From contig CAVQAL010000006.1 of NCBI GenBank assembly GCA_963710575.1, positions 317,784-381,783 on the forward strand: a stretch of DNA of 64,000 nucleotides, in the 5' to 3' direction. Below are positions 43,979-63,017 of the stretch, piece by piece (within the stretch, counting starts at the first letter, position 1; each line of letters opens with the position of its first letter). Origin of the DNA: an uncultured delta proteobacterium (GTDB lineage Bacteria; Desulfobacterota; Syntrophia; Syntrophales; Smithellaceae). Under the pieces are notes generated by a model. The model worked only from the letters and a program-made list of their open reading frames with translations. It did not search any database and was not told where the DNA came from. The position numbers and the translations under genes were made by a program.

Positions 43979-44301
43979 CGAAAGCGTACTGCCTTATAAA
44001 AATTTGCAAAACTAATTAATCTTAAGAGTAAATTATAAATTCCTTTCCTTGTCAAGCATAATTTGTTTGTTTTACTGAAGGATTCAACAGGAGAACCTCA
44101 ATTTATTTTCATTATCTACATTAGTTTTTGCAGCCATAGCAAGACAGGTACTTAGTATAAGCGTCCCATTTTATGTTTATTTTGTATTATAAAAATTATC
44201 TCTGATTTGCAGTATTTTAAAACATTGGCAAAATATTAAGGTGCTTGACAAAAAGCCAATCTCAACCCTATAAAGCTACAAAAAATAAGGGAAAGAAAAT
44301 A

Positions 44302-45705
44302 ATGGAAAAAATCAGAACCCGCTTTGCACCTTCACCAACAGGCTATTTACACATTGGTGGGGCGCGAACAGCTCTTTTTAACTGGCTTTATACCCGCCAC
44401 TACGGCGGTGAATTTGTTCTGAGGATTGAAGATACCGACCAAGAACGTTCGACCGATGAATCCACCAAGGCCATCCTCGATGCCATGACTTGGATGGGCC
44501 TGGATTGGGATGAAGGGCCCCATTTTCAAGCTCAGCGTGTTGATCTTCACCGGGAAATGGTGCAAAAACTGATTAATGAAGGAAAAGCCTACTATTGTAC
44601 TTGCACATCTGAAGAACTCGAAACCAAAAGAAAAGCAGCTTTGGCCGCCGGAAAAAAGCCCAAATATGACGGCACCTGCCGCGACAAAAAATTAAAGAAA
44701 TCTCCCGGTAGCGTTGTCCGCTTTCGTGGCGCACAAACCGGAATTACGATTGTGGAAGACCTCATCAAGGGTAATATAAGTTTCAATAATGATGAGTTGG
44801 ACGATTTGATTATAGAACGCGGCGATGGGTATCCCACGTACAACTTTGCCGTTGTCATTGACGATGCACTCATGAACATCACGCACGTCATTCGCGGCGA
44901 CGACCATGTCAACAATACACCGCGCCAGATTTTGATGTATGAGGCGCTCGGTTTTGATGTGCCCAAATTCGCCCACGTCCCAATGATTCTGGGATCAGAC
45001 AAGGCGCGCCTGAGCAAGCGTCACGGAGCGACTTCTGTTATGGCCTACAAAGAGATGGGTTACCTGCCGGAAGCGCTCGTCAATTATCTGGTGCGCCTCG
45101 GGTGGTCGCATGGAGACCAGGAGATTTTTTCGCCAAAGGAACTAATTGAGCACTTCGATTTATCCGCCGTCGGCAAATCGCCCGCTGTTTTAAATCCCGA
45201 AAAATTAATCTGGCTCAACGCGCACTATATAAAGGAAGCAAATCCTGAGCGATTGATGGAAGAGATGAACCTCTTTTGGCCTGTCGGCGCCAATACGGTC
45301 GATGCCGCTTTCACGCAAAAAGTGATCGCCGATTTGCAGCCGCGCGTCAAAACACTGATCGAACTGGCAAACGCGGCGAGTTTCTACTTTGCCGATGAGA
45401 TTCAGTATGAAGAACCAGCCGCCAAGAAGTTTCTAGTGCCTGATGTTTCCGCTCATTTAAAAGCGATGGCCGCAGCAATTCCATTGGTGCAAAACTTCAG
45501 CAGAGAAGGTCTTGAAGAATTCCTCAAGGCTTTTGTGCAGGAACGAGACATCAAGTTCAAAGTTCTAGCCCAGCCGCTGCGGGTAGCGTTGACGGGAAAA
45601 ACCGTCAGTCCCGGCATTGATGAAGTCATGGCAACTCTGGGCAAGGAACGGGTCATACAAAGGATCAATGCCGCACTTGCCTATATTGAAATTCAGAATA
45701 AATAG
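44302..45705 (+). CDS. gltX: Glutamate-tRNA ligase
   Basis: RFAPSPTG, HIGG, RLSKR; TTGACA(44245)-18 nt-TATAAA promoter upstream. Confidence 0.97.
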   Translation: MEKIRTRFAPSPTGYLHIGGARTALFNWLYTRHYGGEFVLRIEDTDQERSTDESTKAILDAMTWMGLDWDEGPHFQAQRVDLHREMVQKLINEGKAYYCTCTSEELETKRKAALAAGKKPKYDGTCRDKKLKKSPGSVVRFRGAQTGITIVEDLIKGNISFNNDELDDLIIERGDGYPTYNFAVVIDDALMNITHVIRGDDHVNNTPRQILMYEALGFDVPKFAHVPMILGSDKARLSKRHGATSVMAYKEMGYLPEALVNYLVRLGWSHGDQEIFSPKELIEHFDLSAVGKSPAVLNPEKLIWLNAHYIKEANPERLMEEMNLFWPVGANTVDAAFTQKVIADLQPRVKTLIELANAASFYFADEIQYEEPAAKKFLVPDVSAHLKAMAAAIPLVQNFSREGLEEFLKAFVQERDIKFKVLAQPLRVALTGKTVSPGIDEVMATLGKERVIQRINAALAYIEIQNK

Positions 45706-45719
45706 GTCAGTTCATGGCG

Positions 45720-45840
45720 GCCACGGTATTTTCAACCAGCGGCAATCCCGCGGGAGGTTGCGTTATCCTCTGCTTCGCGGGATCAATTCCATTTGCGCTT
45801 CAAATTTCGTTTCACTCATTTTCAGCGAATGTCATTAATT
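45720..45840. repeat. Palindromic repeat family C, copy 3
   Basis: Similar to 41250-41368; boundaries approximate. Confidence 0.55.
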
Positions 45841-46028
45841 CGACCTGCAAGCCTCAGTCGCAGATGACCCGGCGTGACCCTTAGGTTATTCAGGTTATGC
45901 ACTTTGTTACTGAAACTTGGATCTCATTATTGCAGGGAGCTTCCGGCTCTCGCCAGAGGGGCCTTCACTTTCATCTTGACTTTTAAAGTCGAATTGAATA
46001 GATACTCACCCTCAACTTTCCACACTAT

Positions 46029-46102
46029 TGGGGGATCGTCTGGCGGCGGGACTCAGGGCTCTGAATCCTGCTACATAGGTTTGAATTCTGATTCCCCAGC
46101 CA
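46029..46102 (+). tRNA. tRNA-Gln(CTG), degenerate/possible pseudogene
   Basis: Acceptor TGGGGGA/TTCCCCA-G-CCA; anticodon loop CTCTGAA; T-loop TTTGAAT and weak T-stem. Confidence 0.7.
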
Positions 46103-46106
46103 ATAT

Positions 46107-46181
46107 GGTCCCATCGTCTAGTGGTTAGGACGCTGGCCTCTCACGCCGGAAACCGGGGTTCAACTCCCCGTGGGACTACCA
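46107..46181 (+). tRNA. tRNA-Glu(CTC)
   Basis: GGTCCCA/TGGGACT acceptor, CTGGC-CTCTCAC-GCCGG anticodon arm, TTCAACT T-loop, CCA end. Confidence 0.95.
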
Positions 46182-46187
46182 AAATAA

Positions 46188-46294
46188 TATCAAGTAGTTG
46201 CAAAAAATGTTGTAGCTCATTTTTTATTTCAATATTTAAATTCCCAACACTATTCCCAACAACAAAATCAATTCTAATCAATTCTAATCAATTC
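46188..46294 (+). promoter_or_regulatory. att-arm region: IHF site, direct repeats and 10-bp tandem repeat
   Basis: TATCAAGTAGTTG fits WATCAAN4TTR; TTCCCAACA x2 (46241, 46253); AATCAATTCT x3 (46266-46294). Confidence 0.6.
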
Positions 46295-46694
46295 CGTTAT
46301 CACCTCCCATAAAATCCGACTTACAGAATTCCATTATCCATTTATAAACTACATCGCGAGGATACTATAAACCATCAGTGAATTACCCCCGCCACAGGGC
46401 GCGGCATATTAATAAACTGGATGAGGGGAGATTACATCCCCATCCACTGAACGTGGTATTCTGATGTAAGTTTTAGTAAACGGTAAACCGTATATGAAAT
46501 ACGGAATACCGTTTTTTTATTGCGATTACATAAAATAATGTCTCATTTTCTATAACAATAAAACAACTTATATTTAATAATATTATAATAATTATAAACA
46601 TATACATAAGTTGTTGCATTGTTTTTTATTCAAATTTTAAAAATGGCATACATATTTCATCAGATAAAGACAAATAAGTTTGGAGGCAATTTTT

Positions 46695-46925
46695 ATGGAT
46701 GAGGTCATATACATTACAGAGCGCGATGTCAGCCGGATAACTTCGCGGGCACTGTCAACGTTGAGAAACGATCGCTTTAATGGACGAGGAATTCCATATT
46801 ACAAAATCGGCTCGTCCATCAGATATTCCCGCACTGACGTTATTAATTTCATGGAAACACGAAAAATCATGACCTCACCAGAACATGCAAACAAGCCTGA
46901 ACAGGAGGCAACTATGAAGAGATGA
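46695..46925 (+). CDS. Excisionase/AlpA-like helix-turn-helix protein
   Basis: YITERDVS....LSTLRNDR..G.GIPYYKIG.SIRY; SD GGAGG. Confidence 0.85.
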   Translation: MDEVIYITERDVSRITSRALSTLRNDRFNGRGIPYYKIGSSIRYSRTDVINFMETRKIMTSPEHANKPEQEATMKR

Positions 46926-46994
46926 TTTTGAAAATAACAAATGAGCTACTAGGCGAGTTCCGAAAGCCATCACATATCAAACAAGGAGGATTTT

Positions 46995-47210
46995 ATGAAT
47001 ATCATCAGTATAAATTTATCAAAAGCCGCGCGGAAAAAACTTAAGCGTTATGTAAAGATTCCAGTGGAGATTCGATCAGCAGCACGAAAAAGTTTTAAAT
47101 TAACGCATGAGGACATTATAAATCTTGGGTTACATATTCAGTCTGTAAACCAGCAACGTTTTTGGGAAAAACTTGAGCTGTACGGCAACTATAAAAATAA
47201 TAACTCGTAA
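46995..47210 (+). CDS. Small basic hypothetical protein
   Basis: 71 aa; SD AAGGAGG. Confidence 0.6.
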   Translation: MNIISINLSKAARKKLKRYVKIPVEIRSAARKSFKLTHEDIINLGLHIQSVNQQRFWEKLELYGNYKNNNS

Positions 47211-47375
47211 TAACACAAAAAAAGAAAGGACGGTGATGCTTTTGATTGCATAAAAAATGAAGATAAGCGGAATGCGTCGGAAATTAATTGGCCATTCTTG
47301 GAAACGAGAATGGTTTTTTTATTTCCGAAAACCTTTAACCCTTAACCTTAAATTCTAATAAGGAGGAATTTAAAG

Positions 47376-48430
47376 ATGTCTAAAAATTTAGATGTAACAA
47401 AAGAGGAAGTTAATGATCTTCCCAAACCAACGAGTGAAGCGGAGGCTACAACCAGCTCCGACCATAATTCAACCCTCAGAGCCCGAACCTGAATATTGGT
47501 CATATATGGGTATTGACAGTACGTCGTTCTAGGAAATCGACATAGTTAGCGTTGATGATGACGACCAGGAATCAGTGAATGAATGGATGGGCAAGATTAA
47601 AAAGCCCAAGAAAGGTCAGAATGTAAATATTGATCAGGTTATTCAGGAAGGCATCGAATTAGCTAAAGGTATTGCTTCCGAAGCCAATCAATTGATCAAT
47701 GCAGCTTTCAAGAATTTTGCTGATAGAGCAATATTCATCGGTTTAATCTGCCATCAAGTTAAAGGTATTAATTCGTGGCGACAAGAAACCTTGGGCTGTT
47801 TGGGCGGAAGAAAATTTTTCGTTCATTCTAAAGAGGAATCGTGAGAAATATATGCTCCTGGCAAGCAGGCCTGATTGCTGGCCTTTCAGCTTTCTTGGCG
47901 TCGACAGACTGGAAATGCTGTGTTCCGTCACCAAAGCAATGAAGGGTACTAATTGTATCAGTGATCTTCTCAAGAAGTACAAAATTCCTTTTAATGAAAA
48001 GATGGAAATTAACATGAGTGAGTTCAAAGCCATGATCGATGCGGCAATTAGTAATGAGCGGCTAGAAAACAATGGCTTAACGATTGATTACGACACAGTA
48101 AAAGGTGTCACTGATCTTGGTGTTGATATTGACAAATCAATGATCAAAAGGCTCAAAGACGTAAGGGATTGCGGCGGAAATCCGAAAACCCTGCTGGCCA
48201 GAAATCAATGTTGACCGGCGGTAAGGAGGACATGGATGTTACTCCCGAAAAGACGGCTGCAAGATTTCAATCATCTTTCTAATCGTCTTATCAAGACGTT
48301 GATTTCATAATGGATGACCAAGACCAACTCGTCAAAATCGACCGTGATACATTTCGCGATGTTAATGGCAAAGCTCACCAGCATTCAGGAATTGGGAATC
48401 TTGAATGAAGATGAGGAAAAGGCTGCGTAA
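47376..48430 (+). pseudogene. Multiply frameshifted gene, DUF3102-like central region
   Basis: SD AGGAGG plus ATG 47376; fragments 47575..47844 and 47852..48214 join across frames (AIFIGLIC...WAEENF...REKYMLLA). Confidence 0.5.
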
Positions 48431-48496
48431 CTTTTAACCTAGGCCTTCTGTTGTCTTAGATGGCGGGGGGCTTTTTTATTTAGAGGAGGAAATAAG

Positions 48497-49377
48497 ATGA
48501 AAGTTTGTCAGGCATCAATGAGCTCTAGGGTTTTAAAGCGTTACTGGGACCTTTTCAGGGAATTATTAAATATCTTGTTGTCATTCGCCTATGCGGGACC
48601 GGATTTCGAGGAGATTCTTATCAAGTGCCGTCACATGGTCGGCAGCATCATTCTGGATTCCGGTACATGGACCGCTTCAAAAGGTAATTCCAATATAACT
48701 CTGGCCGGCCTTATTTCATATATTCAGACAATAGGCCACCTTTTCGACGGGTTTTCAATTTTGACAGCGACTTTTCTGACCGGGGATTTGTCAACAATAT
48801 CGTCAACCAGATAATAATGGAAAGAGCCGGTCTGCATCCCATACCCGTGGTTCACAATTTGTTCGATTCGGAAATCGACTATTACATTGACTCGGGAAAG
48901 TACAATTGTCTGGCTCTTGGTTCCCGCCAAATCACGAACTTCGACGATCTGGCATATGCCGTTTATCGAATTAAAAAAGGTAATCCGAATATAAAAATCC
49001 ACTGGTTTGGCGGCAGCCGGTATGAATGGCTCTGCAATCTGCCCATAGCAAGTTGCGATACTTCTTCCTGGGGAACGGTAGGTAAATTCGGTTTTATCAG
49101 ATACTGGAACCCGCACTTATCAGGAATAAACAAGGGGCATTCAATTTATACCAGCGGAGTGGTCAAGGATATTGAGGAAGGCAAATACGAGTATGTAACC
49201 TATCCATGGCGGAACGATCTCGATGCATATCTTCAGGAAACCTTTGGTCTGACGTTCCACGACCTATGCGGATATGACGCTGCCTATAATATGCAGCTTG
49301 TCAATACCCGATTCTATGCGGAATTGGAACGGCGGATTAATGAGGAACGAGTCCGGCGCGGGATAGCGTTGGAATAA
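48497..49377 (+). CDS. TGT/DpdA-like TIM-barrel transglycosylase, 1-nt deletion near 48750
   Basis: ILDSGTWT, FNFD, PIPVVH, LALG, KIHWFG, SCDTSSW motifs in the expected order. Confidence 0.7.
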
Positions 49378-49380
49378 TAG

Positions 49381-49396
49381 GCGCAGGAGTCTGCGT
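49381..49396. promoter_or_regulatory. Palindromic operator-like site GCGCAG-N4-CTGCGT (also 49859, 51317, 51447 degenerate, 58051, 62411)
   Basis: Six intergenic copies, all inside the island. Confidence 0.65.
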
Positions 49397-49416
49397 ATTT
49401 TAGAAAGGAGAAAAAA

Positions 49417-49785
49417 ATGGGAACTTTTTTTGGAGTAACCGCTAGCAGCGGTGCAAAGATTAAAAAAGATAAGGAAGAAGAAGTCCAGAAGTTGCTGGAC
49501 AAATATGACTTTTCACGTGGCCTCGAGTGCCAGATTAATAACGGCAGTATAGAAATATGGGGATATGAATGGCCATATTTATATCTAAAACCTAAAAATG
49601 ATGAAGATGATCCGGATGATGATGTATTTGTAAAATTCTTGGAAGAGCTGGCTCCGTTACTGGCTGAAACTCTGGTGATACAGGCTGTTGGAAATGAAAA
49701 GTGTGTCTTTCCGCTCTCGGCCGCAGAAATAATAGTTACACAAACAGGTGTGGAAGGCAGAAACGTATTTAAGTGGTCATGGTGA
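49417..49785 (+). CDS. Acidic hypothetical protein
   Basis: 122 aa; SD GAAAGGAG. Confidence 0.7.
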   Translation: MGTFFGVTASSGAKIKKDKEEEVQKLLDKYDFSRGLECQINNGSIEIWGYEWPYLYLKPKNDEDDPDDDVFVKFLEELAPLLAETLVIQAVGNEKCVFPLSAAEIIVTQTGVEGRNVFKWSW

Positions 49786-49807
49786 TCAATAATTGATTGA
49801 TGTGTGA

Positions 49808-50000
49808 AAGGGACTCATTTTCTTAACTGGGGTGGGTCCCTTCCCTGTCATCAATATGGCGCAGAAGTCTGCGTATTTTGGAAAGGAGAGTGATGCAAGA
49901 TGGGCTGATTCAAAGAGTAATATAAAAATAAATTTAAATAACCCGGAAATAAAAGGGGCCTCTCAATAAAGAGATGGTCCCTTTTTATTTTTCAAAACTA
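49808..50000 (+). repeat. Island intergenic module copy (hairpin A, operator, SD plus minigene, hairpin B)
   Basis: Hairpin B AAAAGGGRCCTCTCAATAAAGAGATGGTCCCTTTT is repeated at 53564. Confidence 0.75.
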
Positions 50001-50027
50001 AAAATAATATCAAAGGAGAATTTGTAT

Positions 50028-51227
50028 ATGTCAAAACGAAATAAAAATAAGAAGGATTTACGTGACGAAAATTCTAAATCGTCAAAGGAAATAATTTTGC
50101 CGAGAGGCTTCTTAAAAAAAATGGGCATTGTGCCTTTTGCCGATGAGGAGCATAATTTAAATAAACAATTTATTGCAAAAGAAATACGGAAGCATTTCGG
50201 GCAACCTGAATTCGAAAAGTTTTGTAGCATGAAGGATGTCAACGATATTTATGACTATTTATGCTCTCAAATATTCCTAACCAAATTAAGTTACAGATGC
50301 GAATATTATAGAATTTGTAGGATAGCTGATGCACTGAGAGATCTTCCAATGTCACCCGACTTGAAAATTTTGGACGTAGGTGGTGGGACAGGATTGCTGG
50401 CCTTTTATATGGCTCAAATATGGGGAAATAGTGAAATTACAATTGCAGACAAGTATTCGAATGTAGGTTCACAGTGGGCAAAGGAAATCGGTGCTGATAG
50501 GGTTAGCTTTATTGACTCGATCCTTCCTGATCTCCCCAATATTTCCGATCAGCATTACGACGTTGTTGTCTTATCGAGAGTTCTCAATGTTTTAGACAAA
50601 TTGAATCTCCCCAGTTTTATCAGTACAAGCTGGGATAATTATTCCAAAAGTAAAGAGGGTATTCAGCGGAATGAGGAATTGAAGAAAATAGCTGCGAGCT
50701 TGAAACGAGTAATGAAGCAAGATGGATCACTCATAATTGTTGAATCATGGTCTGGTGACCGTGTACTCATGGTAGGAAAAGCTTTTGAACAAAGTGGCCT
50801 GTTTATCAATTTGGACGGTTTCAGTTCGGATCATGTAAGCAACGAATATTCTATTATCACTTTTTCAAATGCATTTAATACCAAATTGCTTCGCGATATC
50901 CCTTTGGCTCTATCCACAAAAGTCGATGAGAAATATAATGACAATACAGTTCATCAGATGGCCGCCGAATCTCTCAGAAATCTTTTTGAAAGTAAACCGC
51001 CTATAATGGAATTTGAATTCATTGAGAATAGTAAGGTGATGAGATGTGAGCTATTTGAAAAAAATGGACTGGCATTGTTTTCTGTTAGGACATCTAAAGG
51101 TCAAAAAATGGCCACGCTTTCTTCGGCTGTTGACATCCCCAAGATAATAGAGATGTACAAAAAAAGTGAAAAAGAAATGGTTTCTAACAGCAAGTATAAG
51201 ATCACCCAAAGTGTGACAGTAAGATAA
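50028..51227 (+). CDS. Class I SAM-dependent methyltransferase domain protein
   Basis: ILDVGGGTG motif I, YDVVVLSRVL; SD AAAGGAG. Confidence 0.8.
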   Translation: MSKRNKNKKDLRDENSKSSKEIILPRGFLKKMGIVPFADEEHNLNKQFIAKEIRKHFGQPEFEKFCSMKDVNDIYDYLCSQIFLTKLSYRCEYYRICRIADALRDLPMSPDLKILDVGGGTGLLAFYMAQIWGNSEITIADKYSNVGSQWAKEIGADRVSFIDSILPDLPNISDQHYDVVVLSRVLNVLDKLNLPSFISTSWDNYSKSKEGIQRNEELKKIAASLKRVMKQDGSLIIVESWSGDRVLMVGKAFEQSGLFINLDGFSSDHVSNEYSIITFSNAFNTKLLRDIPLALSTKVDEKYNDNTVHQMAAESLRNLFESKPPIMEFEFIENSKVMRCELFEKNGLALFSVRTSKGQKMATLSSAVDIPKIIEMYKKSEKEMVSNSKYKITQSVTVR

Positions 51228-51260
51228 ACATCAAAACTATATGTAAAATTAATTTTTCAA

Positions 51261-51573
51261 AAAAAGGGGCTCTCACGGGAATTTGAGCCTTTTTTTATTT
51301 TTAATAGTGATAAAAAGCGCAGGTTCCTGCGTTTCTTGAGAAAGGGGGTATTAAGAATATGAGATGATAATGATATAAAGAGTAATTCAAAATTATAATT
51401 GCGGAAGTGGGGTCAGGTTATTTACTGGCCCCTTATCATCAATATGGCACAGGGGTCTACGTTTTAAAAGGAAGGTGATGAAATATGAGCTGATTTAATT
51501 ATAATTTAATAAAAATACAATTTGAGCAAGTTTGGGTAAAAGGGGCTTTTTCCGGATGGAGAGTCCCTTTTTT
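51261..51573 (+). repeat. Two tandem island intergenic modules
   Basis: Hairpin A, operator 51317, minigene 51359; hairpin, TCATCAATATGG, degenerate operator, minigene 51478/51485, hairpin B'. Confidence 0.7.
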
Positions 51574-51665
51574 ATTTCCCGTTAACAACTAACAAAACAG
51601 CGACTCATACCCGGTGGCCGCTTTAAAATTGAGAACAAGATATTCTCATAAATGGAGGTTTAACA

Positions 51666-53418
51666 ATGTCAGATTTTAGTTCCAAAGATAAAAAAATATT
51701 CGATGATATGATAAAATGTGTCAAAGATACCGGCTTGAACATTTTGAACGAGCGGATGGAATCAATCAATACGACAACCCAAGTGAACATCCTTTGTATA
51801 AGTATGGCTATCACAGGGAAAGATGCCCTGAAAGACAAACTCACGTCCGTAGCAATATGCGTATCCAATCATCCCGCTATCTTGTTTGACATGATCAAGT
51901 CCAAACCGGAAGATATAATCACGCTCAAGCAATTGCTGGAAGATCACACAGCAAAGGTCTTTTTCGATGCCAAGAAGGCGCTGAATTTCTTTCATGCAGC
52001 TGGCTTCGAAATTAACGGTCCAATTTATGATGTCATGTTGATGGACAAAATCCTGCGAGCCGGTGATAGAGAGAAAAATTTGACTATTAATAGCATTATC
52101 ACACAATACCTCGGAACATCCATGACCATAGACTCTGTCTTAATTCCCGTCGATAAAGAAGTAGAGATACTTCTGAAACTATATGAAGTCATCCTTTGCC
52201 AGCTAATGGAAAATGATTTGCTGGACACAGCAACCTTGGAATTTGAATGTATCCGGGCTGTTGCTGGAATGGAGAGGAACGGGATCAGGGTCGATGGGGA
52301 AAAATTAAAGGATATGCTGCAGAAGTTTACTGAACAGCAAGATTTTTTTGCAAAAATACCGCGTCAGTATTTGGGAGATGTCAATCTAAACAGTCATAAA
52401 AAAGTAAAGGAAGAGCTCATCAAAAAAGGGGTCAAGGTAAAAGATACAAGGCGGGGAACACTTCAGCCCCACATCTTTCCATATCTTTACTTATGGGATT
52501 ATCAAATTTATAAAAAGTTTAAATACTACAGGTCGCTCGCCGCAGCCCTTCTGGACAAGAATCGACCCCAATACAGGCAGACTATATCCCAAGTATTCAC
52601 AAATAGGTGCACCTAATGGTCGTCTTTCCTGTTCTGACCCGAACCTTCATGCAATACCAAGAACAGAGGAATTTAGATCATGTTTTATTCCGGATGACGG
52701 TTATAAGCTTATTATTGCCGATTACTCTCAAATTGAATTGAGAATTGTAGCGGAAATCAGTCATGATAAACTCATGGTTGATGCATATCAAAAGGGAGAC
52801 GATCTTCATAAACTGACTGCGTCGCTGATAACGTATAAGACAATGGATTATGTTAACAAGGATGAATGTTTAACTGCGAAAGCTGTAAACTATGGGCTCA
52901 TTTACAATATGGGAGAAAAAAAATTAATTAAATTTTTTCTTGATAACTACGGTCTTACTATTCTTCCGCAACGGGCAGAGAAGTATAGAAGTGTATTCTT
53001 TTCAGCTTATCAAGGAATTGCCCAGTGGCATGAGGATTTCGATTCTCAATCATATGGTGAAACGAGAACATTGGGCAATCGCAGAAGGGTCTGGGACAGC
53101 TATTACATGAATACCACAGACCTTCTGAAAACAACGATACAGGGAACAACTGCGGATATACTGAAGAGAGCATTATGCATTCTTCACGAGAGGATTAAAA
53201 ATACTGGGATAAAAATCATTGGTTGTATCCACAGAGAGATCATTATGGAAGCACCTATTATGAAAACAGACGCAGCAATTCAACTCATGCGCAAGTCCAT
53301 GACTGACGCAGGCCAGCATTACCTGAAAGAGGTTCCGGTTGTGGTCAATATTTCTGCTGTTGATAATTGGTATGAGAAACAGGGATCACATATGGGTGGT
53401 AGTAATAACCTTCCGTAA
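51666..53418 (+). pseudogene. Family A DNA polymerase-like protein (exo plus pol), +1 frameshift near 52560, catalytic residues substituted
   Basis: MERNGI, GRLSCSDPNL, ADYSQIELR, AKAVNYGLIY, IQGTTADILK; motif C reads IHRE. Confidence 0.8.
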
Positions 53419-53443
53419 TCTGTTAACCTCTTAACTGTCTGAA

Positions 53444-53612
53444 AAAGAGGCTCATTTCTCTCACGGGATTTGAGCCTCTTTGTTTATTTAGAAAGGAGTG
53501 TGATGAACTATGGGTTGATTTGATAATTGTACGGTAATTCAATAATTAAAAGAATCAAAAAATAAAAGGGACCTCTCAATAAAGAGATGGTCCCTTTTCT
53601 ATTTTCAAAACA
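53444..53612 (+). repeat. Island intergenic module copy
   Basis: Hairpin A GAGGCTCA...TGAGCCTC, SD plus minigene 53503/53510, hairpin B. Confidence 0.75.
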
Positions 53613-53637
53613 AAAAAATATTAGGAGGGAAAATATC

Positions 53638-54741
53638 ATGAAAAATGAAGATAAAGAAAATCAAATTATTAAAAGCGATGCAAGTAAAAGCTCTGAATCT
53701 AACAAAAAGCTTTCTGTTACAGAATATCTCGGGCCTGATTGGAAAGAGTATTTCAAAAAACCTAAGGTACTTATGAGAATTATGAAAGCTGTTACCTGGA
53801 CTAGAAATTTTAAAAACTCTCATCGATTCAATGCAAGGCGGGAAGCAATAACCAAAAAAATGTTTAAAAACAAAAAGACGCATGATTTTGTTTCTGTAGA
53901 CGCAGTAACTGATTTGGGAACCAATCGACAAAGACTGATTGTTATACTTCGGGAAATAAAGACTGGATTGAATGAAAAATGGGTTCTAGACATTACATTA
54001 ACTGCCCCCAAAGCGGTGGATCTTCTTGATGCCTTGTACTGTTCGGAAGAAGACTGTGAAGGAATAGTAATCTTGTATTGTGATGATATTCCAAATATAC
54101 ATGAACCTGAATTTAATATCGAAAAAGAAGCACTATCAGATCTCCTTTCGGAGATGTCCCACATCACAAACAATATATATTCGGTTCTTGTGGATATTGA
54201 TTGCGAATGCGACGAGGTAAACAATATGAACCTCCGCTTCGGTTTAAGATCACCTCAGGGATTAATGTCATATAAAGAACGAAGAAAAATCAATCCTCGC
54301 ATAGAATTAGAGAGCAGTATATGGGACAATTATTACGCGGCATTTATGGCGGAGACAAAAATAAAATGTTATGAAAGTCAATTGATTAGTGATCAGTATC
54401 ATGGATCAATCCCTTTATTAGCAGTGCCAATATGGACGGAGAAAGGACTCTTCATGAGAATAGAAATAATGGAAGTCCAAATAGAAGAGGTCACTCGACT
54501 TGTAATCAAGCATAAAGAAGAACTCGTAAGAGGTTACTCTGGATACAAAATGGAAGTAAAATGGAAATCAGGAATACCTTATCACATTGACATTCAGCTT
54601 CATAATACACCTGTTGCAGATTTTGTTGAAGGCTCAACAAAGGCAAAAATTAATTATGCCTCGGAAATACGCGAACAGCAGTTAAAACTGATGCATCACA
54701 TAGAGGAGATTTTTCAAGACTACACTCCAGAGTCAAAATAG
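53638..54741 (+). CDS. Hypothetical protein
   Basis: 367 aa; SD AGGAGG; no family recognised. Confidence 0.7.
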   Translation: MKNEDKENQIIKSDASKSSESNKKLSVTEYLGPDWKEYFKKPKVLMRIMKAVTWTRNFKNSHRFNARREAITKKMFKNKKTHDFVSVDAVTDLGTNRQRLIVILREIKTGLNEKWVLDITLTAPKAVDLLDALYCSEEDCEGIVILYCDDIPNIHEPEFNIEKEALSDLLSEMSHITNNIYSVLVDIDCECDEVNNMNLRFGLRSPQGLMSYKERRKINPRIELESSIWDNYYAAFMAETKIKCYESQLISDQYHGSIPLLAVPIWTEKGLFMRIEIMEVQIEEVTRLVIKHKEELVRGYSGYKMEVKWKSGIPYHIDIQLHNTPVADFVEGSTKAKINYASEIREQQLKLMHHIEEIFQDYTPESK

Positions 54742-54776
54742 AATTCGGATGTGTTTATAACGGCAGATATATGAAT

Positions 54777-54820
54777 AAAAGAGGCTCATTTTTCTCACCG
54801 GGATTTGAGCCTCTTTTTTT
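54777..54820 (+). terminator. Hairpin A terminator copy
   Basis: AAAAGAGGCTCA...TGAGCCTCTTTTTTT. Confidence 0.8.
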
Positions 54821-54934
54821 ATTCAGTTCAACCGCAAGAAACAATCCCGCACTGATCTGTCCTTCAACCCAGAACAATAATAATGAAGGATAATTTTCCT
54901 TTAAATTCCATATTCCTTAGAAGGAGAGAAAAAG

Positions 54935-55114
54935 ATGAAGACAGCATGTTTTACCAAAGCGTTAACCGTAGCCTTTTCCGAAGAGATTTATTTCAAGATC
55001 AAAGAAATCACCGACGCGAAAAATATTTCCATGGGTGAGTGGGTCAGATTGGCATCAGAAAGGGCATTAGACAACAACGAATATAACAAGTGTATTGAAG
55101 GAGGAAACAAATAA
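54935..55114 (+). CDS. Ribbon-helix-helix (CopG-like) protein, not in the ORF track
   Basis: MKTACFTKALTVAFSEEIYFKIKEITDAKNISMGEWVRLA...; SD AAGGAG; TAATG overlap with the primase start. Confidence 0.7.
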   Translation: MKTACFTKALTVAFSEEIYFKIKEITDAKNISMGEWVRLASERALDNNEYNKCIEGGNK

Positions 55115-57456
55115 TGACATATTATCAATCTAATTTTTCAGAAGAAGAACCAATAAACGTGGCAGCTGCATTTATTCATACTATGTTTAATAGCTCATTA
55201 AATCAAGGGGCGGGTGAAATTGAAATCAGAACTTTTAAACCTATGGCAAAAGGTTATTTTTTCAACTCTTCACATGCCGCGGCCAAATTAGCTATCAATC
55301 TTTGCGCTCAGGGGATTGATGTTTATTTCGGCGTGAATCCCAGAACCGGCCAACAAGGGAAAAAAGAAAATGTTCATTATCTATCTTCCTTTCACGCAGA
55401 GATTGATTACGGCAGTCTTGGCCATAAAAAAGAAACGGAATTTAAAAATTTTAAAGAGGCATTTGATGTAGTTGATGGTTTTTATCTCCACCCATCCATT
55501 ATTATTCATTCCGGTGGTGGCTTCCATTGCTACTGGGTTTTAAAAACTCCATTATGTGTATCAGATTACGGAATAGTCGCATTGGAAAATGTTAACAAAG
55601 CACTGACAAAGGCTCTCAACGGCGATTCTGGCACTCATGATTTATCGCGAGTATTACGTGTTCCAGGAACTTTTAATTTTAAACAACCGGAGAATCCCAG
55701 ACCAGTTGATATCTTTTTGCTGAGTGACCTGACTTACTCACTCGATGATTTCAGTGAATTGGTGGCAACCTTGAAAGAAGAACCAGTGAAAACTAAGGCC
55801 AAAGCTGAGAGACAGCCTGCTTCATTAACTGATGTTAAAGAACCTGCTCAAAACCCAATAAATAATACCATTGATATTGACGCTCTGCCTGTTTCAGAAA
55901 AGATAAAGAATCTTATCAAACACGGTAATGATGGTTCTTATTCAACACGTAGCGAAGCGGATATGGCGGTAATACTATTATTGGTTAGTAAAGGCCTTGG
56001 TGAAAATGAAATCAGGCAGATATTCCAGTCGTATCCCATTGGCGTTAAGTATCGGGAACATTCGTCGCCAGATGATTATTTGAATCATAACATCCAGAAG
56101 GCAAAAGAGATGTCCAATCTGACGGAAGAGGAAATGCAAAACCCGCTGTTTATATCAGGCTCCATTTCCAAGACAGATAAAGGCTATCATTTAAAGAGCC
56201 TGAATTTTGAAGAATACATGGTGAAAAAATATATGATAAAGATTCTCGACCAGGAGGTTGCTTTCTTCAAATACAACGGGAAATGCTATGAACAGTGCAC
56301 GGAAAAAACCCTGAACAATCTTTGTCAAAACGAATTGGCTGCATACAGGCATCTTTTCAGCAAGTCGAATTTGAATGAACTGATTCATTATGCAATCGGA
56401 GATGCTTTGGTCGATAGTGATAATGCAAGAATCAACCAGGTCAAATATCTTACCCTGCAAAACGGTTTATATGATCTTGATGCCGGAGAACTGATTGAAC
56501 ATTCCCGCGATATCTTTACGACTAATCTGCTGCCTTATAATTATGATCCAGCCGCAACATGTCCCCGATTCATTCGGTTTCTCAAGGAAATATTCGAGGA
56601 TAATCAGGAAAAGATAGATTTCGTCCAGGAGGCTGTCGGCTATGCATTTCATAAATCGTTGCCTACTCCAGCAGCATTCTTTCTTGTCGGTGGCGGCAGT
56701 AATGGAAAATCGGTTTTCATCAACACCATTGCCAATCTCATCGGCAGGGAAAACACATCCAATGTCAGCTTCAATGCTTTGTCCAATGAATATTATGTCC
56801 TGGAGCTCTTCCAGAAAATGATCAATATCTCCGGCGAGACTCCTCAAGGGAAATGCATCAATACTGACGCGGTAAAGGCTGCAACTGCCGGAGACTGGAT
56901 TACGGGAAGAGGATTGTATAAGGAGCCCATGAAATTCAGGCCATTTGCCAAGCACTTTCTGGCCATGAATAAACCGCCTGTGATCTCTGACCAATCTCAT
57001 GGGATGTGGAGAAGGATATGGGTATTGAAGTTCAACAGACGCTTTACTGAAGAGGACATGGACCGCCAACTGGAAGAGAAGCTAGTCAGTGAACTCTCCG
57101 GTATTTTCAACTGGGCATTGGAAGGTTACAATAAGCTGAAAGATAAGAAATTTGCCCTAAGCGAATCCGCAACCATGAAGATGTCGAAGCAAGAATATCG
57201 GGATGAAATTAATAGTGACAGCATCAGTTCTTTTGAAAAGAAATATTTTGTGAAATCAAAAGATCCTAAAGATGTTATTGTCTTCAACGAAACGTATGAA
57301 TTTTATAAAGCATACTGCCAACGTGAAGAAAAGACAGACTTACAGGATAAAAACTATTTCAAGAAAATGCTTATTGATATGGGCTATAAAATAAAAAGTT
57401 CCACCAGACATGGCAATAAGGTTTGTATCTTTAATGTAAAGATAAATTTAAAGTAA
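55114..57456 (+). CDS. Phage/plasmid primase-helicase (RepB'-type AEP, helical bundle, D5_N, SF3 helicase; P4 family)
   Basis: DVYFGVNPR, HSGGGFHCYW, RVLRVPGT, RSEAD, LQNG, CPRF, GGGSNGKS, GMWRR. Confidence 0.9.
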   Translation: MTYYQSNFSEEEPINVAAAFIHTMFNSSLNQGAGEIEIRTFKPMAKGYFFNSSHAAAKLAINLCAQGIDVYFGVNPRTGQQGKKENVHYLSSFHAEIDYGSLGHKKETEFKNFKEAFDVVDGFYLHPSIIIHSGGGFHCYWVLKTPLCVSDYGIVALENVNKALTKALNGDSGTHDLSRVLRVPGTFNFKQPENPRPVDIFLLSDLTYSLDDFSELVATLKEEPVKTKAKAERQPASLTDVKEPAQNPINNTIDIDALPVSEKIKNLIKHGNDGSYSTRSEADMAVILLLVSKGLGENEIRQIFQSYPIGVKYREHSSPDDYLNHNIQKAKEMSNLTEEEMQNPLFISGSISKTDKGYHLKSLNFEEYMVKKYMIKILDQEVAFFKYNGKCYEQCTEKTLNNLCQNELAAYRHLFSKSNLNELIHYAIGDALVDSDNARINQVKYLTLQNGLYDLDAGELIEHSRDIFTTNLLPYNYDPAATCPRFIRFLKEIFEDNQEKIDFVQEAVGYAFHKSLPTPAAFFLVGGGSNGKSVFINTIANLIGRENTSNVSFNALSNEYYVLELFQKMINISGETPQGKCINTDAVKAATAGDWITGRGLYKEPMKFRPFAKHFLAMNKPPVISDQSHGMWRRIWVLKFNRRFTEEDMDRQLEEKLVSELSGIFNWALEGYNKLKDKKFALSESATMKMSKQEYRDEINSDSISSFEKKYFVKSKDPKDVIVFNETYEFYKAYCQREEKTDLQDKNYFKKMLIDMGYKIKSSTRHGNKVCIFNVKINLK

Positions 57457-57618
57457 CAATTGTTTATTGGGGATGGGGAATTGATTTCTTTCCCCTCCCC
57501 AAAAGAAGAAGAAATCACTATCAATATTTTATATTGAATAACATATGATTAAGAAAACATTAACAAGTTCGATGCAAGTAAAAATGAAAAACTAAACAGA
57601 TTAAATGGTTCCAGTAAA

Positions 57619-57735
57619 GATTAACAAGATTAACTAGAATATACAACTATTCCCAAAAATAATGAAATAATAATAAATATAATATTTATAAATATACTCT
57701 TATAAAGTTACAGAATTTAGTTAATCTGGTTAATC
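57619..57735. promoter_or_regulatory. Putative replication origin
   Basis: GATTAACAAGATTAACTA / TAGTTAATCTGGTTAATC inverted repeat (17/18) flanking about 80 bp of AT-rich DNA after the primase gene. Confidence 0.55.
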
Positions 57736-58675
57736 CATCCCGAAGATATTCAGTTCATTGGGGAAATAAATTTCTAAATGTAAATTTGTTAATCAAAAGT
57801 TATTCAAGAGTTATTCTATAAATAGAAGTCTTCTCTTTCTTTTGGGAGAGGGAGGAAATAGCCTCTAATAATATATTAAGAAAGGGTATGGTCTGCTGCT
57901 ATTGCTGGTTATATCCATACAGCATCCTCTAATAACTGCCTAAGTCTTCTTAAACAAGAGAACTTCTGTTGCTTATAATAAGGGGAGGGACAATAAAAAA
58001 TGACTCTCGGAACGGTTTGGGGCGTTGATGTTTATGCTGAGTTATAAAAAACGCAGACTCCTGCGTATTTCTGTTCTGGATATATCCCAGCAACACCATC
58101 CCATAACTTCTCTGGCTAACGTGGGAGATAGATCTGTTCTGCCTTATATAAGGAGATGGAGGCAGAAATGACCTTGCCAATTTAACGATAACTGGTTGAA
58201 GCATGCAGGTTTTAAAATGATATTCCTTAGTAGAAGTGTTTATTTGTTGCTTCCTGAACTCCACACATTGCTGTCTCGAAAAAATATTCAACATTACAAA
58301 TGTTAATAAACACCATTCATAATGGCAATAATATAATAAATTTTTTACTTATTGACAAACCGGTTAAGAATCATGTAGGAAATCGTAGTCTTTTACTGTG
58401 GCTTTGATTGTTTTTGATTAGTTTTCCTGTAATTAAATTAAAAAAGGGAATTCGATTCATGTCGTCATCAATTCTATTTAAATTAAATCTCCCCCCATTC
58501 ATTCTTTGTGAATTAAATTTCTCTAAATGTATTAATGCACTTTTTAGATTATGTTCCAAGATTAAGTTCTAATTTCCACCGTACAAATTTATTTTTTGAG
58601 TTACCAGAAACGAATTTCAAGAAGCAATAAAACGAAGTTTCTGTGTGGACTAATAAACGTGAAAAGGAGAAATGG

Positions 58676-60436
58676 ATGAAAAGCATTAAATGTTTGCTGG
58701 GTATTGTATTAATATTTTTTGTGATAGTCTTTCTAACCTCGTGCAGTAGCGGTGGTAGTAGCAGCACTCTACCTACCAGCACCCTGGGCGGTGTTGCGGC
58801 GGTGGGTACTCCGATTGTCGGCGGAAACATCAGCGTTATTTGCACGGCAGGTAACCCTCTCTCCACGACCACAGACACGGGTGGTACTTGGCAAGTCACT
58901 TTCTCCGGAGAAACTTTCCCTTGTGCGGTGGAGGTGAGTGGTGGCACAATCAACGCGGTGGCGAACACGACGAACTACAACTCGATTGCCATCTCCGCAG
59001 GCACCGTGAATGTCACACCGCTCACCGATCTGCTTGTTGCCAATCTGGTGGGTACAACAACCCCCAGCACATGGTTTGCCGGATTAAGCTCAAATCCTGC
59101 ACAGTTGGCCTCTATCACCCAAACCCAAGTGAACACGGCGCTCACCAACTTGAACACCACCCTCCTGAGCGGACTAACCCAGCTTAGTGCCAACAACCCG
59201 ATCACCACGACCTTCACGCCTACTTCTGGGAATGTTAACGACGACATGCTGACTGCACTGTCAACGGCCATGACCAATGCCGGTGTCCCATACACAAATC
59301 TGCTGGGGGATGCATCTACTGCCACACCTATTACAGGCTTCAATACCGCCCTGACGATCGCGTACTCTCATACGCCGACTGGCACGATCACCCAAGCTGA
59401 TCTAACGGGAACATGGGTTATGCATTCCCTGTGGGCAGGCAGCACGAGCAAATGGAACTATGCCACCGGAACGATCGATTCTTCGGGCAATTTAATCGGT
59501 ACGAATTGTCTTGACAGCACAGGAAGCACTACTTGCCCAACAGCAGGACAGGTAGTTTGGACAGTTAATTCAAACGGCGTAATAACTGCAAGTGGCACCG
59601 GAGCAGCACCCAATTTGGCAATGACGATGACAGCGAATAAGAATTTCATCGCAGGAACGTCCAACCACACCGGCAGCAGCTATACAACCAATGCTGGGTT
59701 GCAGATTGTACAAAAAGTAGTGCCAGGAACTACATACAGCAGTGCCGACTTACAGAACAAATCGTTCGTTGTCCATCAGTTAATGACTAGTACCACTGGA
59801 GACCCAGAATGGGTCTATGGGGCGGGAACTACCGACGCGAGTGGTAATGTTACCCTTACCAGTGAGGCCGATTCAAAAGGAGGTGTTAATAATGGCACGG
59901 GACCCCAGGGAAAACTATCGGTGGATAGCAATGGGGTCGTCACTTTAACTGGAAGCGGAAACGGAAACGACGCGTCTTACAACGGATTTCTATCAGCCGA
60001 TAAGAAAACGATTGTGGGAACAGAAACAGAATTAGATGGAGTCACCTTTGACTTGATAATCACCCAAATTACCGGACAGACTTACACTGCAGGCTATTTG
60101 CCCGCCGGAACATGGACCCAGCATTTTATTGCAGACGTCGACTTCACAAACTCCCCCGACTACATGAACACCCCCGACGCTTTCTGGGTTGCTCAAACCC
60201 AAACAATGACCAGCAGCGGCGTCTATACCTATAGCAACGCGACGTCCAGTATGAGCGGTTATACTCCTGATAGCGGGGGCACCGCCTCCATCACTTCATC
60301 AGGCACTGTAACCACGACGGAAATTTCAAAATACAATGGGCAAATGTCGAACGATGGGACATTTTGTGTGGGTACAGCGACGAAGGTAGACAGCGATTCA
60401 AACAACTGGTATTTCCTCATTGTAAACACGCAGTAG
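58676..60436 (+). CDS. Thr/Ser/Gly-rich surface lipoprotein with three beta-rich repeats
   Basis: Lipobox LTSC; repeats begin TQADLTGTW, SSADLQNKS, TAGYLPAGTW. Confidence 0.75.
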   Translation: MKSIKCLLGIVLIFFVIVFLTSCSSGGSSSTLPTSTLGGVAAVGTPIVGGNISVICTAGNPLSTTTDTGGTWQVTFSGETFPCAVEVSGGTINAVANTTNYNSIAISAGTVNVTPLTDLLVANLVGTTTPSTWFAGLSSNPAQLASITQTQVNTALTNLNTTLLSGLTQLSANNPITTTFTPTSGNVNDDMLTALSTAMTNAGVPYTNLLGDASTATPITGFNTALTIAYSHTPTGTITQADLTGTWVMHSLWAGSTSKWNYATGTIDSSGNLIGTNCLDSTGSTTCPTAGQVVWTVNSNGVITASGTGAAPNLAMTMTANKNFIAGTSNHTGSSYTTNAGLQIVQKVVPGTTYSSADLQNKSFVVHQLMTSTTGDPEWVYGAGTTDASGNVTLTSEADSKGGVNNGTGPQGKLSVDSNGVVTLTGSGNGNDASYNGFLSADKKTIVGTETELDGVTFDLIITQITGQTYTAGYLPAGTWTQHFIADVDFTNSPDYMNTPDAFWVAQTQTMTSSGVYTYSNATSSMSGYTPDSGGTASITSSGTVTTTEISKYNGQMSNDGTFCVGTATKVDSDSNNWYFLIVNTQ

Positions 60437-61034
60437 AAAAACCATATAGGTGTTAAAACCCTGCCCCCTGCGGGGGCGGGGCATATAAATAAAAATTAAA
60501 GGATATTAGGTTTTAAAAATATCTTCAATTTGAAGCTTCCAGCCGTTTATTGGTTTCATTTAATTTTTCCGGGGGACTACACGGCCACCGCCGCTGACGC
60601 GGTGTCGTACACTCTTTGAATTCGTAATCTTCAGTTTTTCCGGTTTTATAAATCTATTTGTTTGTAGGTGTAACAAATTCCCGCCACACAAGCATTTTAA
60701 CAATTTAACCTCAACGAATATCAGTTGAAAGAGAGCATATCCGCATTAATTGGTTTCATTAGCCCCAATTACTAACTGCAAAGATTCTCAAACTATAAAA
60801 ATCACCACTGCAACCAATTAATCTCATTCCTTGATTCATGGCCAAAATCAGCCGTTCTTGGTTTTTATAACAAATTATCTTTATCACATCAGTTTGTTTC
60901 CAAAGCGCACCCCAATGCGTTTTATAGTTATCCATTCTCAGAAACAAACTGACTACTCATCTCAAAATTTTCTAGAACAAATAAATATAGGAATAAGAAA
61001 TTTATAAAATCATTTTAGGAAAGGAGGAAAGATT

Positions 61035-61220
61035 ATGAAACAAAAACTTTTTACCAGACCAATCTCTGTGGTGCTGTCCATTGAGATGTTCGATCAAATC
61101 AAAGCTGTAACAGACCAGGGGAATATTGGGTTCTCTGATTATATCAGGGATGCATTACAAGAAAAGTTAAACAGGAAAAAAACAATTATTAAAAAGGAGA
61201 AAAGATATGAAACAGAATGA
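61035..61220 (+). CDS. Ribbon-helix-helix protein, paralog of 54935
   Basis: FTRPISVVL....FDQIKAVTD..NI.FSDYIRDA; SD AAGGAGG. Confidence 0.7.
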   Translation: MKQKLFTRPISVVLSIEMFDQIKAVTDQGNIGFSDYIRDALQEKLNRKKTIIKKEKRYETE

Positions 61221-61368
61221 TATTTATGAAACCGCAGAATTATTCTCTGCTGCTGATGTTGAAGTATATCTCAAGTATGGCTGGATTTTGTTGGACGTAA
61301 AAACGGGCAATGATTCTTGTCCATCCATATTTGTAATGGGAAAGGTAAAAAAGGAGAAACAACCATGA
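61207..61368 (+). CDS. Small hypothetical protein (53 aa), not in the ORF track
   Basis: SD AAAGGAG; MKQNDIYETAEL...YLKYGWILLD; overlaps both neighbours. Confidence 0.5.
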   Translation: MKQNDIYETAELFSAADVEVYLKYGWILLDVKTGNDSCPSIFVMGKVKKEKQP

Positions 61369-61430
61369 GAAAAAGAACATTACATACATCGGTAAACCTA
61401 TTGATAGAGCCTAATAAGGAGGAATAGACT

Positions 61431-62339: not shown

Positions 62340-62690
62340 TAGGGCATGCTTGGAAAATATCACATTAAACCTTCCTGCTTCTTCTTAATCAATATGCTGG
62401 ATTTAAAAAAGCGCAGACTCCTGCGTATTTTTCAATTGAAAAGTTTCCGGGACTATCTGTTTTAGGTTTTTATCAGGTTAGAATCATTCCAATATTGAGG
62501 CCGATTTTCGCTTTGCTGAGTTTATACCATGAGTGATAAACTGGCTTGAAAAGGTTATGGAATGAGTGGGTTATTTAGTTCACTTATCAACGAGTTTCTA
62601 TTTGTGATTAAGGTGAAGATTACCATTTGATCTTATCAATGCAGAGCCACTCTCTAAATTCAACGACTGTGACACTTAGGCGTTAGACCT

Positions 62691-63002
62691 CTACGATGCC
62701 CGCAGGTTTTGCTGGAGTCGTTCAATAAGATCACGAATGGCTCTTGCGTCGTCTTTACGATGCCCATGGCTCACAATGGGGTTGCTTCCTCCCGCCGAAT
62801 CAATTCGGATGTTGGACCATATTAAACCCGTTTGGATATTGACCGAAGCCACTTTAGGGATTGCAATGCTTTCTTCATTGGAACCAAAGAGTCGCGGTTT
62901 AATCCGCGTAACCCGGTTTTGATTTACTTCAATACGCACGGGGAAAAGCCGGTTTCCCGAAGTCAACCGACTGGCGGTGAATACACGGTTGTCGTCAGGC
63001 AT
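62691..63002 (-). CDS. Bacterial PH-domain protein
   Basis: FTASRLTSGNRLFP..I, EESI.I.KVASV.I.TGL; SD AAGGAGG. Confidence 0.65.
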   Translation of the reverse strand: MPDDNRVFTASRLTSGNRLFPVRIEVNQNRVTRIKPRLFGSNEESIAIPKVASVNIQTGLIWSNIRIDSAGGSNPIVSHGHRKDDARAIRDLIERLQQNLRAS

Positions 63003-63017
63003 TGTTCCCTCCTTCAG

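Follow-up and report, generated by a model that had tools for sequence, protein, structure and literature searches.

Two-codon open reading frames behind extended Shine-Dalgarno sequences are conserved between the cistrons of related genomic islands and are candidate ribosome parking sites

The stretch of DNA analysed here (64,000 nucleotides (nt) of contig CAVQAL010000006.1 from an uncultured member of the Smithellaceae; hereafter the window) contains a mobile island in which the spacers between genes repeatedly carry a very short open reading frame (ORF) behind an extended Shine-Dalgarno (SD) sequence. In one class of these units (class a) the mini-ORF is a start codon, a single sense codon and a stop codon, and start and stop are conserved in all of the modules that we compared between islands, supporting the view that the units are translated minigenes under selection. 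Their most likely role, judged from sequence, would be to hold a ribosome on the RNA rather than to make a product. That they are cis-acting parking sites, which tether an idling ribosome through the SD, is a reading that we consider evenly poised between right and wrong.

Mini-ORF modules in the window

Four ATG-NNN-TGA units, proposed in the initial annotation as conserved minigenes, were read directly at 49900-49908 (ATG GGC TGA), 51359-51367 (ATG AGA TGA), 51485-51493 (ATG AGC TGA) and 53510-53518 (ATG GGT TGA), each 10-11 nt downstream of GAAAGGAG, AAAAGGAA or GAAAGGGGG. These, like the tRNA genes, SD sequences, module hairpins and terminators located below, lie on the + strand. Module B (49881-49908) and module D (53491-53518) join the first and the last of these minigenes to the extended SD sequences GAAAGGAG-A-GTGAT and GAAAGGAG-T-GTGAT, respectively, both with a predicted duplex energy of -19.8 kcal/mol. 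Between them lie two modules in tandem, C1 and C2. Module C1 (51317-51367) consists of a palindrome, termed hairpin A (51317-51332), the SD GAAAGGGGG (51340-51348; duplex energy -16.9 kcal/mol) and its minigene, and is homologous to positions 7300-7366 of the related island locus L122. Module C2 (51447-51493) contains a degenerate hairpin A (51447-51462), the SD AAAAGGAAGGTGAT (51466-51479; -15.8 kcal/mol) and its minigene.

Hairpins of several types follow these modules. Terminators of type a2 (terminator B) were located at 49951-49992, before a methyltransferase gene (minimum free energy -20.0), and at 53564-53606, before a 367-codon ORF (minimum free energy -20.6), the latter being 79% identical to 49931-50021 in a repeat comparison. 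Module C1 is closed by an a3-type hairpin without a T-run (51409-51432), which may be compared with the terminator GGCCAGGTTTTCTTAACTGGCC of L124 and L146, and module C2 by a terminator B of type a1 (51538-51577), with 14 pairs and a GGG/CCC clamp and likewise returned as a consensus structure, followed by a conserved leader of about 100 nt before a polymerase ORF. A further terminator (53447-53489) lies after the polymerase gene and directly before module D.

The combination of SD, two-codon ORF and terminator occurs in this genome in island DNA only. Genome-wide, a two-codon ORF was found 4-13 nt after 48 of 7051 SD motifs (0.7%), and only four distinct members of this set of 48 have a terminator within 90 nt, of which this island has three and an island remnant on contig C3 the fourth. 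A 30-nt box common to three of the units, GAAAGGAGnGTGATGnAnnATGnGnTGATT, has three matches in the window (at most 3 mismatches) against none in 100 dinucleotide shuffles, and no further occurrence in the 3.05-Mb genome; exact scans for the 29-nt box likewise returned no match outside the window, whether in 100 relatives, in a collection of genome contigs or in viral contigs. The box sequence is local to the window, and the conserved thing is the architecture. We also tried a 21-nt pattern in a metagenome scan, and rejected it as too loose: the matches inspected were all single chance ones, many of them in coding sequence reading VMKDGLI, which we take to be typical of ABC ATPases.

Conservation in homologous islands

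A primase search identified four related loci, L122 among them, in metagenome-assembled genomes (MAGs) of Smithellaceae, Syntrophaceae and Lentimicrobiaceae; a second search, with the DpdA-like protein as query, gave matches in 11 of 339 genomes of the order. The 330 nt after the DpdA-like stop codon were inspected in every locus, and larger pieces of ten islands were compared; the islands sampled are from MAGs of one order. Hairpin A and an SD were present in 12 of 16 distinct loci downstream of the DpdA-like gene. Two of these 12 hairpin-A spacers (L130 and window 49380) start a real gene, and the other ten all continue with an SD and then ATG-NNN-stop: ATG ATT TGA in L121, ATG AGA TGA in L122, L124 and L141 (the latter on contig C3 of the window's own genome), ATG ACT TAA in L126, ATG AGC TAA in L127, ATG CTT TGA in L128, ATG GAA TAA in L129, ATG AAA TAA in L133 and ATG ATC TAA in L137. 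Because only gene homology and hairpin A went into the definition of these loci, the 10/10 spacers are the non-circular count; column counts made after anchoring on the pattern would be circular.

With the four copies in the window, 14/14 class a modules, from 8 genomes, consist of an SD, a start codon, one sense codon and a stop codon. The stop is TGA in nine modules and TAA in five, and ten different sense codons are used. Such an ORF arises by chance at a rate of 3% (0.03 per module) in composition-matched shuffles of the 45 nt after each SD. The flanks are near random for their base composition: identity is 0.39 across 10 upstream nt and 0.34 across 30 downstream nt. The spacing from SD core to ATG is variable (8-12 nt) across modules and ATG-NNN-stop is fixed, which fits translation signals and not a rigid binding site.

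Conservation of start and stop in homologous islands had been set beforehand as the test of the minigene claim, and the outcome was positive, with TGA/TAA switching and a free sense codon in the 14 two-codon units. The accompanying rule that the sense codon follows the form xGx failed, as homologues have ATT, ACT, CTT, GAA, AAA and ATC. By this comparison, selection acts on both codons that bound the ORF, on its minimal length and on the exceptional strength of the SD. A phylum-wide pattern for hairpin A and SD gave 13 matches outside the window's own genome against 8 in the control, all of them GC-rich and unlike the module.

A second class of mini-ORFs

We identified a second class of units (class b) in the spacer before a gene of about 350 codons, homologous to a unit at 47224-47253 of the window and composed of an SD, a very small ORF and a long terminator that is conserved. 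In the window the SD is GAAAGGAC(GGTGAT), with a duplex energy of -15.8 kcal/mol, and the mini-ORF is ATG CTT TTG ATT GCA TAA (47236-47253), which encodes the peptide MLLIA as first annotated. Its intrinsic terminator (47290-47335) is a long hairpin with paired A-tract and U-tract and a CGG/CCG clamp, in which 47290-47315 forms 11 pairs and is followed by a T-run; a hairpin of this kind is also the consensus structure of 7 sequences.

Class b ORFs have 1 to 5 sense codons, and mostly read ATG ATT GCA TAA, as in L122, L146 and L149. The variants are ATG ACT GCA TAA in L144, ATG ATT GCA TGA in L147 (after a hairpin A), ATG CAT ATG TAA in L152, within which ATG TAA is nested, and ATG TAA in L150, where an exact in-frame deletion of 6 nt leaves a bare start-stop. 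Three more units near island starts read ATG AAA ATT TAA, ATG AAG GTT TAA and ATG AAG ATA TAA. These whole-codon differences and switched stop codons indicate that selection acts on an open and closed reading frame rather than on a nucleotide motif.

Shine-Dalgarno strength

The 16S ribosomal RNA (rRNA) tail of the host is ...GGATCACCTCCTTTCT. Three boxes in the window pair with this tail over about 13 nt with one bulged base, and GTGAT, judged from the 16S tail, is a 3' extension of the SD (AGAAAGGAGGTGATC). The predicted energy of the SD:anti-SD duplex has a median of -17.5 kcal/mol for 22 distinct mini-ORFs (the printed n=23 counts one L122 entry twice), against -9.5 kcal/mol for 47 real genes of the same islands. 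For 429 long open frames of the host the median is -9.1 kcal/mol, and only 0.7% lie at -17 or lower; this control is conservative, taking the best of up to six candidate starts per frame.

Terminators, folding and leaders

In class a, a strong intrinsic terminator follows after 38-63 nt of AU-rich sequence from the mini-ORF stop, and in class b the gap is shorter, with no more than about 11-27 nt between the stop and the structured region. The island is enriched in terminator-like sites, with 22 against 9.2 expected, and three unrelated terminator types follow the same SD and mini-ORF. In the consensus terminator, A-tract and U-tract pair with each other in a long hairpin, and a CGG/CCG or GGG/CCC clamp closes it beyond the U-tract. 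From mini-ORF to next gene start the distance is 100-170 nt, with the intrinsic terminator between.

The order of leader ORF, intrinsic terminator and gene, common to all modules, is that of a translation-sensing attenuator, in which occupancy of the mini-ORF would pick terminator B or an antiterminator and thereby gate the next gene by ribosome availability. The short gap in class b would suit such a device, as would the resemblance of the SD (GAAAGGAGG) to the 5' arm of the terminator (AAAAGGGG). We made folds for 14 of the 15 modules entered, those where a terminator was located (C1 has none), and the SD pairs with the 3' arm and U-tract in the minimum-energy folds of three (L145, L149 and L147b). 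In the other 11/14, however, terminator B forms without a competing helix, and the consensus folds of 7 class b and 7 class a1 sequences return the terminator only; no conserved antiterminator or alternative pairing was found in the 14 single folds and two consensus folds, leaving the structural switch on hairpin B that was suggested in the initial annotation unsupported. The class a stop, moreover, lies 38-63 nt from the terminator stem, farther than a ribosome footprint extends, and the three unrelated terminator types behind one SD and mini-ORF also speak against an attenuator, which we judge improbable.

Downstream of the a1-type terminator, a leader of about 100 nt is conserved at 51578-51665 of the window, at L122 7425-7524, and in the equivalents in L149, L150 and L151. 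It contains, in order, a TTAACA..(T)TTAACAA stretch, a covarying AGCGAC/GTCGCT hairpin and a second hairpin abutting the SD; the first of these resembles boxA of rRNA antitermination sites. Class b leaders also have CTTTAACAA-like repeats.

Overlapping micropeptides

The out-of-frame ORFs that overlap three of the minigenes are present as first described, encoding MQDGLIQRVI (from 49893), MKYELI (51478) and MNYGLI (53503). It could be argued that the functional product is such a peptide, of the form M-x-[YD]-[GE]-L-I, acting as a leader or stalling peptide, and similar frames occur in L121 (MLYDLI) and L122 (MEYEMI, from a TTG start). These and the three in the window are the only modules with a plausible start (5/14), and the peptide is missing from the other nine (C1, L124, L144, L145, L146, L147a, L149, L150 and L151), such that its proposed conservation does not hold. 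The first ATG of the nested peptide lies within the 16S-pairing GTGAT segment of the SD, and the residue pattern arises automatically where nAT-Gnn-nTG-ATT is laid over ATG-NNN-TGA-TT. The nested peptides are a by-product of overlapping frames, and a function for them is very improbable.

Hairpin A and the portability of the modules

Hairpin A is a 16-nt palindrome with the consensus ACGCAG-GAGT-CTGCGT and a compensatory change in L122 (GTGCAG/CTGCAT), and nine of its ten copies in the genome fall within three island regions. The duplication of this palindrome together with its SD, described in the initial annotation, was recovered at 49380-49411 and 49858-49889 (30/32 identical, 94%). The first copy (GCGCAG GAGT CTGCGT with SD AGAAAGGAG, 49381-49410) stands directly before, and drives, the 122-codon ORF at 49417-49785; the second palindrome (49859-49874) lies on the other side of this gene. 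Hairpin A and SD serve to drive real genes at three sites (window, L130 and L121). The segments 49417-51310 and 51752-54777 are specific to the window, having no counterpart in L122, and are bounded by modules. At its 5' end (51666-51760), the polymerase ORF has about 30 codons (MSDFSSKDKKIFDDM...) that are homologous to the start of a YbjN-like gene in L122 (7525-7611), which marks a recombination joint within the 5' part of the polymerase gene.

These features would be explained if the unit were not translational, but a DNA or RNA motif to which a factor of the island binds, or else a linker for recombination or an empty slot for expression, left behind at sites of cargo turnover, its ATG and stop being incidental. 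The modules stand exactly where cargo differs between islands, hairpin A and SD are duplicated around one gene and start others, and hairpin A is island-specific. However, a motif would not be expected to swap TGA for TAA, leave its middle codon free, tolerate 8-12 nt of spacing and lose exactly six bases, and a neutral remnant would lose its ATG or stop in some lineages, given flank identities of 34-39%. The extreme SD strength would also be left without a role. We therefore retain from the earlier idea of empty cargo slots the placement of modules at cargo-variable junctions and the driving of real genes by palindrome and SD, and not the emptiness, as the exact start-sense-stop is kept; a non-translational unit as a whole seems to us a rather remote explanation.

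Other sequences accompany hairpin A. TGGAATA(A/G) is kept 2-6 nt before it, in the window (49378-49396), in L121 (8440-8465) and in the equivalents in L149, L150, L147 and L151, both as code for the DpdA-like C-terminus and where it is non-coding, and so belongs to the module. We rejected, by eye, its reading as an extended -10 or sigma-54 element, as neither the -7 T nor the GG-N10-GC spacing is preserved. At 57975-58066 of the window, a 15-codon ORF (MTLGTVWGVDVYAEL) stands behind AAGGGGAGGG and is directly followed by an inverted hairpin A (ACGCAG ACTC CTGCGT); a similar stretch precedes the hairpin A copy at 62410, and another was found on contig C7. The inverted copies (58051 and 62410) would, as RNA, be fully complementary to the GAGT-loop copies in the modules, and might conceivably have a kissing or antisense role.

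Proposed role of the mini-ORFs

We propose that the units could act as follows. The SD of each unit would pair with up to about 13 nt of the 16S tail, and a ribosome starting there would shift by 0-6 nt and then terminate, such that the SD duplex, of -17 to -20 kcal/mol, need never break; with the pairing unbroken by so small a movement, the unit would become a parking site for an idling ribosome. This site would lie on the intercistronic RNA of a tRNA-integrated, primase-encoding island, between the hairpin A of the upstream gene and the terminator (hairpin B). The parked ribosome would act in cis, as a roadblock or occupancy mark that alters the fate of the spacer RNA and hence the expression of the next gene, and the fMet-X product would have no function of its own. 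Most economically, the ribosome would protect the AU-rich spacer against Rho or against decay of the RNase E type, or would stop RNase E or Rho on their way along it, much as suggested for the LEE4, LEE1 and axe-txe leaders; altered use of terminator B is a less likely route. The host has an RNase E/G homologue (338 bits), and no RNase J was found above the 400-bit cut-off in the 92%-complete genome, where the best match scores 18.7 bits. Two-codon minigenes described earlier have their effect in cis; behind a strong SD the ribosome is reported to re-initiate without leaving, and such RNAs to be stabilised (PMC8708949; PMC3262186 for cis action).

The same units could instead work in trans, as toxic minigenes of the lambda bar type, through which an induced island would shed dipeptidyl-tRNA, tie up tRNA and peptidyl-tRNA hydrolase and slow host translation. 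They have the features reported to maximise toxicity, namely a strong SD, a length of two codons and AU-rich sequence downstream (PMC8708949). UGA is used in 9/14 modules and UAA, the more toxic stop, in 5/14, several copies occur per island (five in the window), and AGA is the commonest sense codon, at 5/14. Nonetheless, with ten sense codons in 14 modules no single tRNA is targeted, ATG TAA (L150, and nested in L152) would yield no dipeptidyl-tRNA, the island's own genes would suffer too, and the constant position just upstream of a terminator suggests a role in cis. We regard a toxic function as unlikely.

Several points tell against the parking-site model itself. The mini-ORFs compared for SD energy had been collected with a search pattern in which an SD-like pentamer was obligatory; given this and the kinship of the islands, the Mann-Whitney p of 1.6e-10 overstates independence; the energy gap of about 8 kcal/mol is large despite these caveats. 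The intrinsic terminator that separates each unit from the next gene is a weak point, as downstream genes would also need read-through or antitermination. The sequence-conserved, island-specific hairpin A hints at a dedicated binding factor, which the model does not explain. Finally, the island copies in this genome look decayed, and the units may no longer act here.

A broader form of the parking-site model is conceivable, although we hold it doubtful. SD-tethered idling ribosomes would then define a dedicated class of element, an ORF of 0 to 3 codons with about 13 nt of anti-SD complementarity that serves as a portable gate before terminators. Cargo expression would be tied to the free ribosomes of the host, making the element a sensor of ribosome availability that times the replication genes of the island.

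Comparison with known systems

The ampC attenuator has a ribosome-binding site with adjacent start and stop codons, and the lambda bar minigene reportedly reads AUG-AUA-stop. To our knowledge, there is no demonstrated cross-lineage conservation of lambda bar. It is known through its toxicity in hydrolase-deficient hosts, and the modules here differ from it in their several copies per island, their conservation across 8 genomes, the free codon, the much longer SD pairing and the terminator that is always downstream. Like the modules, bar combines a two-codon ORF with an SD, is carried by a mobile element and is surrounded by AU-rich sequence (PMC8708949).

Two further groups of mini-ORFs have been described in leaders. 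The minigene AUG AAA UAG in the LEE1 leader of enterohaemorrhagic Escherichia coli (EHEC) is a strongly initiated two-codon ORF in a long leader with a cis effect on the next gene (PMC3262186). There spacing from the ler start is critical, with no intervening terminator; the modules have no such close, distance-critical placement, their next start being 100-170 nt off and behind a terminator. The axe-txe mg2 and the six-codon LEE4 mini-ORF resemble the modules as cis-acting mini-ORFs with strong ribosome-binding sites in AU-rich leaders and proposed shields against RNase E, and they are single cases in one operon (PMC8708949), unlike the repeated and portable inter-cistron modules with extended SD seen here.

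In cry3A, the STAB-SD is located well away from the start of the gene; it resembles an SD, binds the tail of the 16S rRNA and has a stabilising effect on the RNA downstream (PMC4113751). The box core GAAAGGAG is of that type, and the modules likewise have long complementarity to the 16S 3' end at a site that starts no protein. In contrast, STAB-SD works without a start codon and against the 5'-exonuclease RNase J1; in the modules start and stop are conserved, and RNase J is below the cut-off in the host. The Start-Stop sites of E. coli are minimal ribosome-binding ORFs that can only be regulatory (bioRxiv 10.1101/520783), and L150 is a true start-stop; those sites lie inside genes and out of frame, have modest effects and are not reported as conserved, whereas the units of the islands lie between genes and are conserved. 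Leader-peptide attenuators (trp, pyrBI), as summarised in PMC8708949, share the order of leader ORF, intrinsic terminator and gene, and differ in that no antiterminator or mutually exclusive helix was found in the modules, which also have no regulatory codons.

The modules differ from known minigenes, Start-Stops and STAB-SD in being portable repeats between cistrons, in their conservation across islands, in their longer SD pairing and in having a terminator always downstream. A literature search found no description of such a family of mini-ORFs, which is not proof of absence.

The island and its setting

The island starts directly downstream of genes for tRNA-Gln and tRNA-Glu (46029-46181; ARAGORN and Rfam), themselves downstream of gltX, and its genes are all on the + strand. 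Positions 46000-46270 are 87% identical to L122 2231-2500, and the L122 island is syntenic and at the same tRNA. In an Rfam 15 scan of 44000-64000 (E up to 1), the two tRNAs were the sole matches, with none at the modules, and sigma-70-like promoters are not enriched in the island (37 against 38.1 expected).

The island genes include a helix-turn-helix/excisionase-like protein (46680), a TGT/DpdA-like protein (48497-49377, split at 48814/48817; PHROG 887 match, E 2e-9), the 122-codon ORF (49417-49785), the methyltransferase gene (50028-51227; Pfam), the family-A DNA polymerase ORF in three pieces (51666-53418; Pfam), the 367-codon ORF (53638-54741), a small ORF that reads by eye like a ribbon-helix-helix protein, no family search having been made (54935-55114), and a D5-type primase-helicase (55114-57456). 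This primase shares no more than 25% identity with those of phages. No relatives of it were found in the viral contigs searched, and a DNA-level search of a phage collection gave no match to module B.

Frameshifts split three island genes (47375-48430, 48497-49377 and 51666-53418), and the DpdA-like gene has in-frame stops in the two other island copies of this genome, on contigs C3 and C7. The split genes reflect either decaying islands or indel errors in the 19-contig assembly. Two pairs of genes look by eye, unaligned, like paralogues: the small ribbon-helix-helix-like ORFs 54935-55114 and 61035-61220, the latter without a Pfam match, and the genes 47375-48430 and 61431-62339, the latter with a sub-threshold DUF1016_N match (25.4 bits against a cut-off of 32.8 bits). 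These look-alikes suggest a second, partial island-like segment at 61-62.4 kb, ending in a hairpin A copy. Far outside the island, a repeat of 53-116 nt occurs in three copies, 91-95% identical, at 8842-8957, 28109-28192 and 35157-35272.

Implications

Work on two-codon minigenes and start-stops has for the most part treated them as single cases or laboratory curiosities, and whether selection acts on them is debated. The natural family described here, present in eight genomes, would provide comparative evidence that holding a ribosome on an RNA can be a selected function. Its natural variants, with TGA or TAA stops, ten sense codons, a true ATG-TAA and three terminator types, offer material for testing the tethered ribosome against RNA decay, Rho and intrinsic termination. 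They also present mobile islands as assembled from portable units of hairpin, SD, ORF and terminator.

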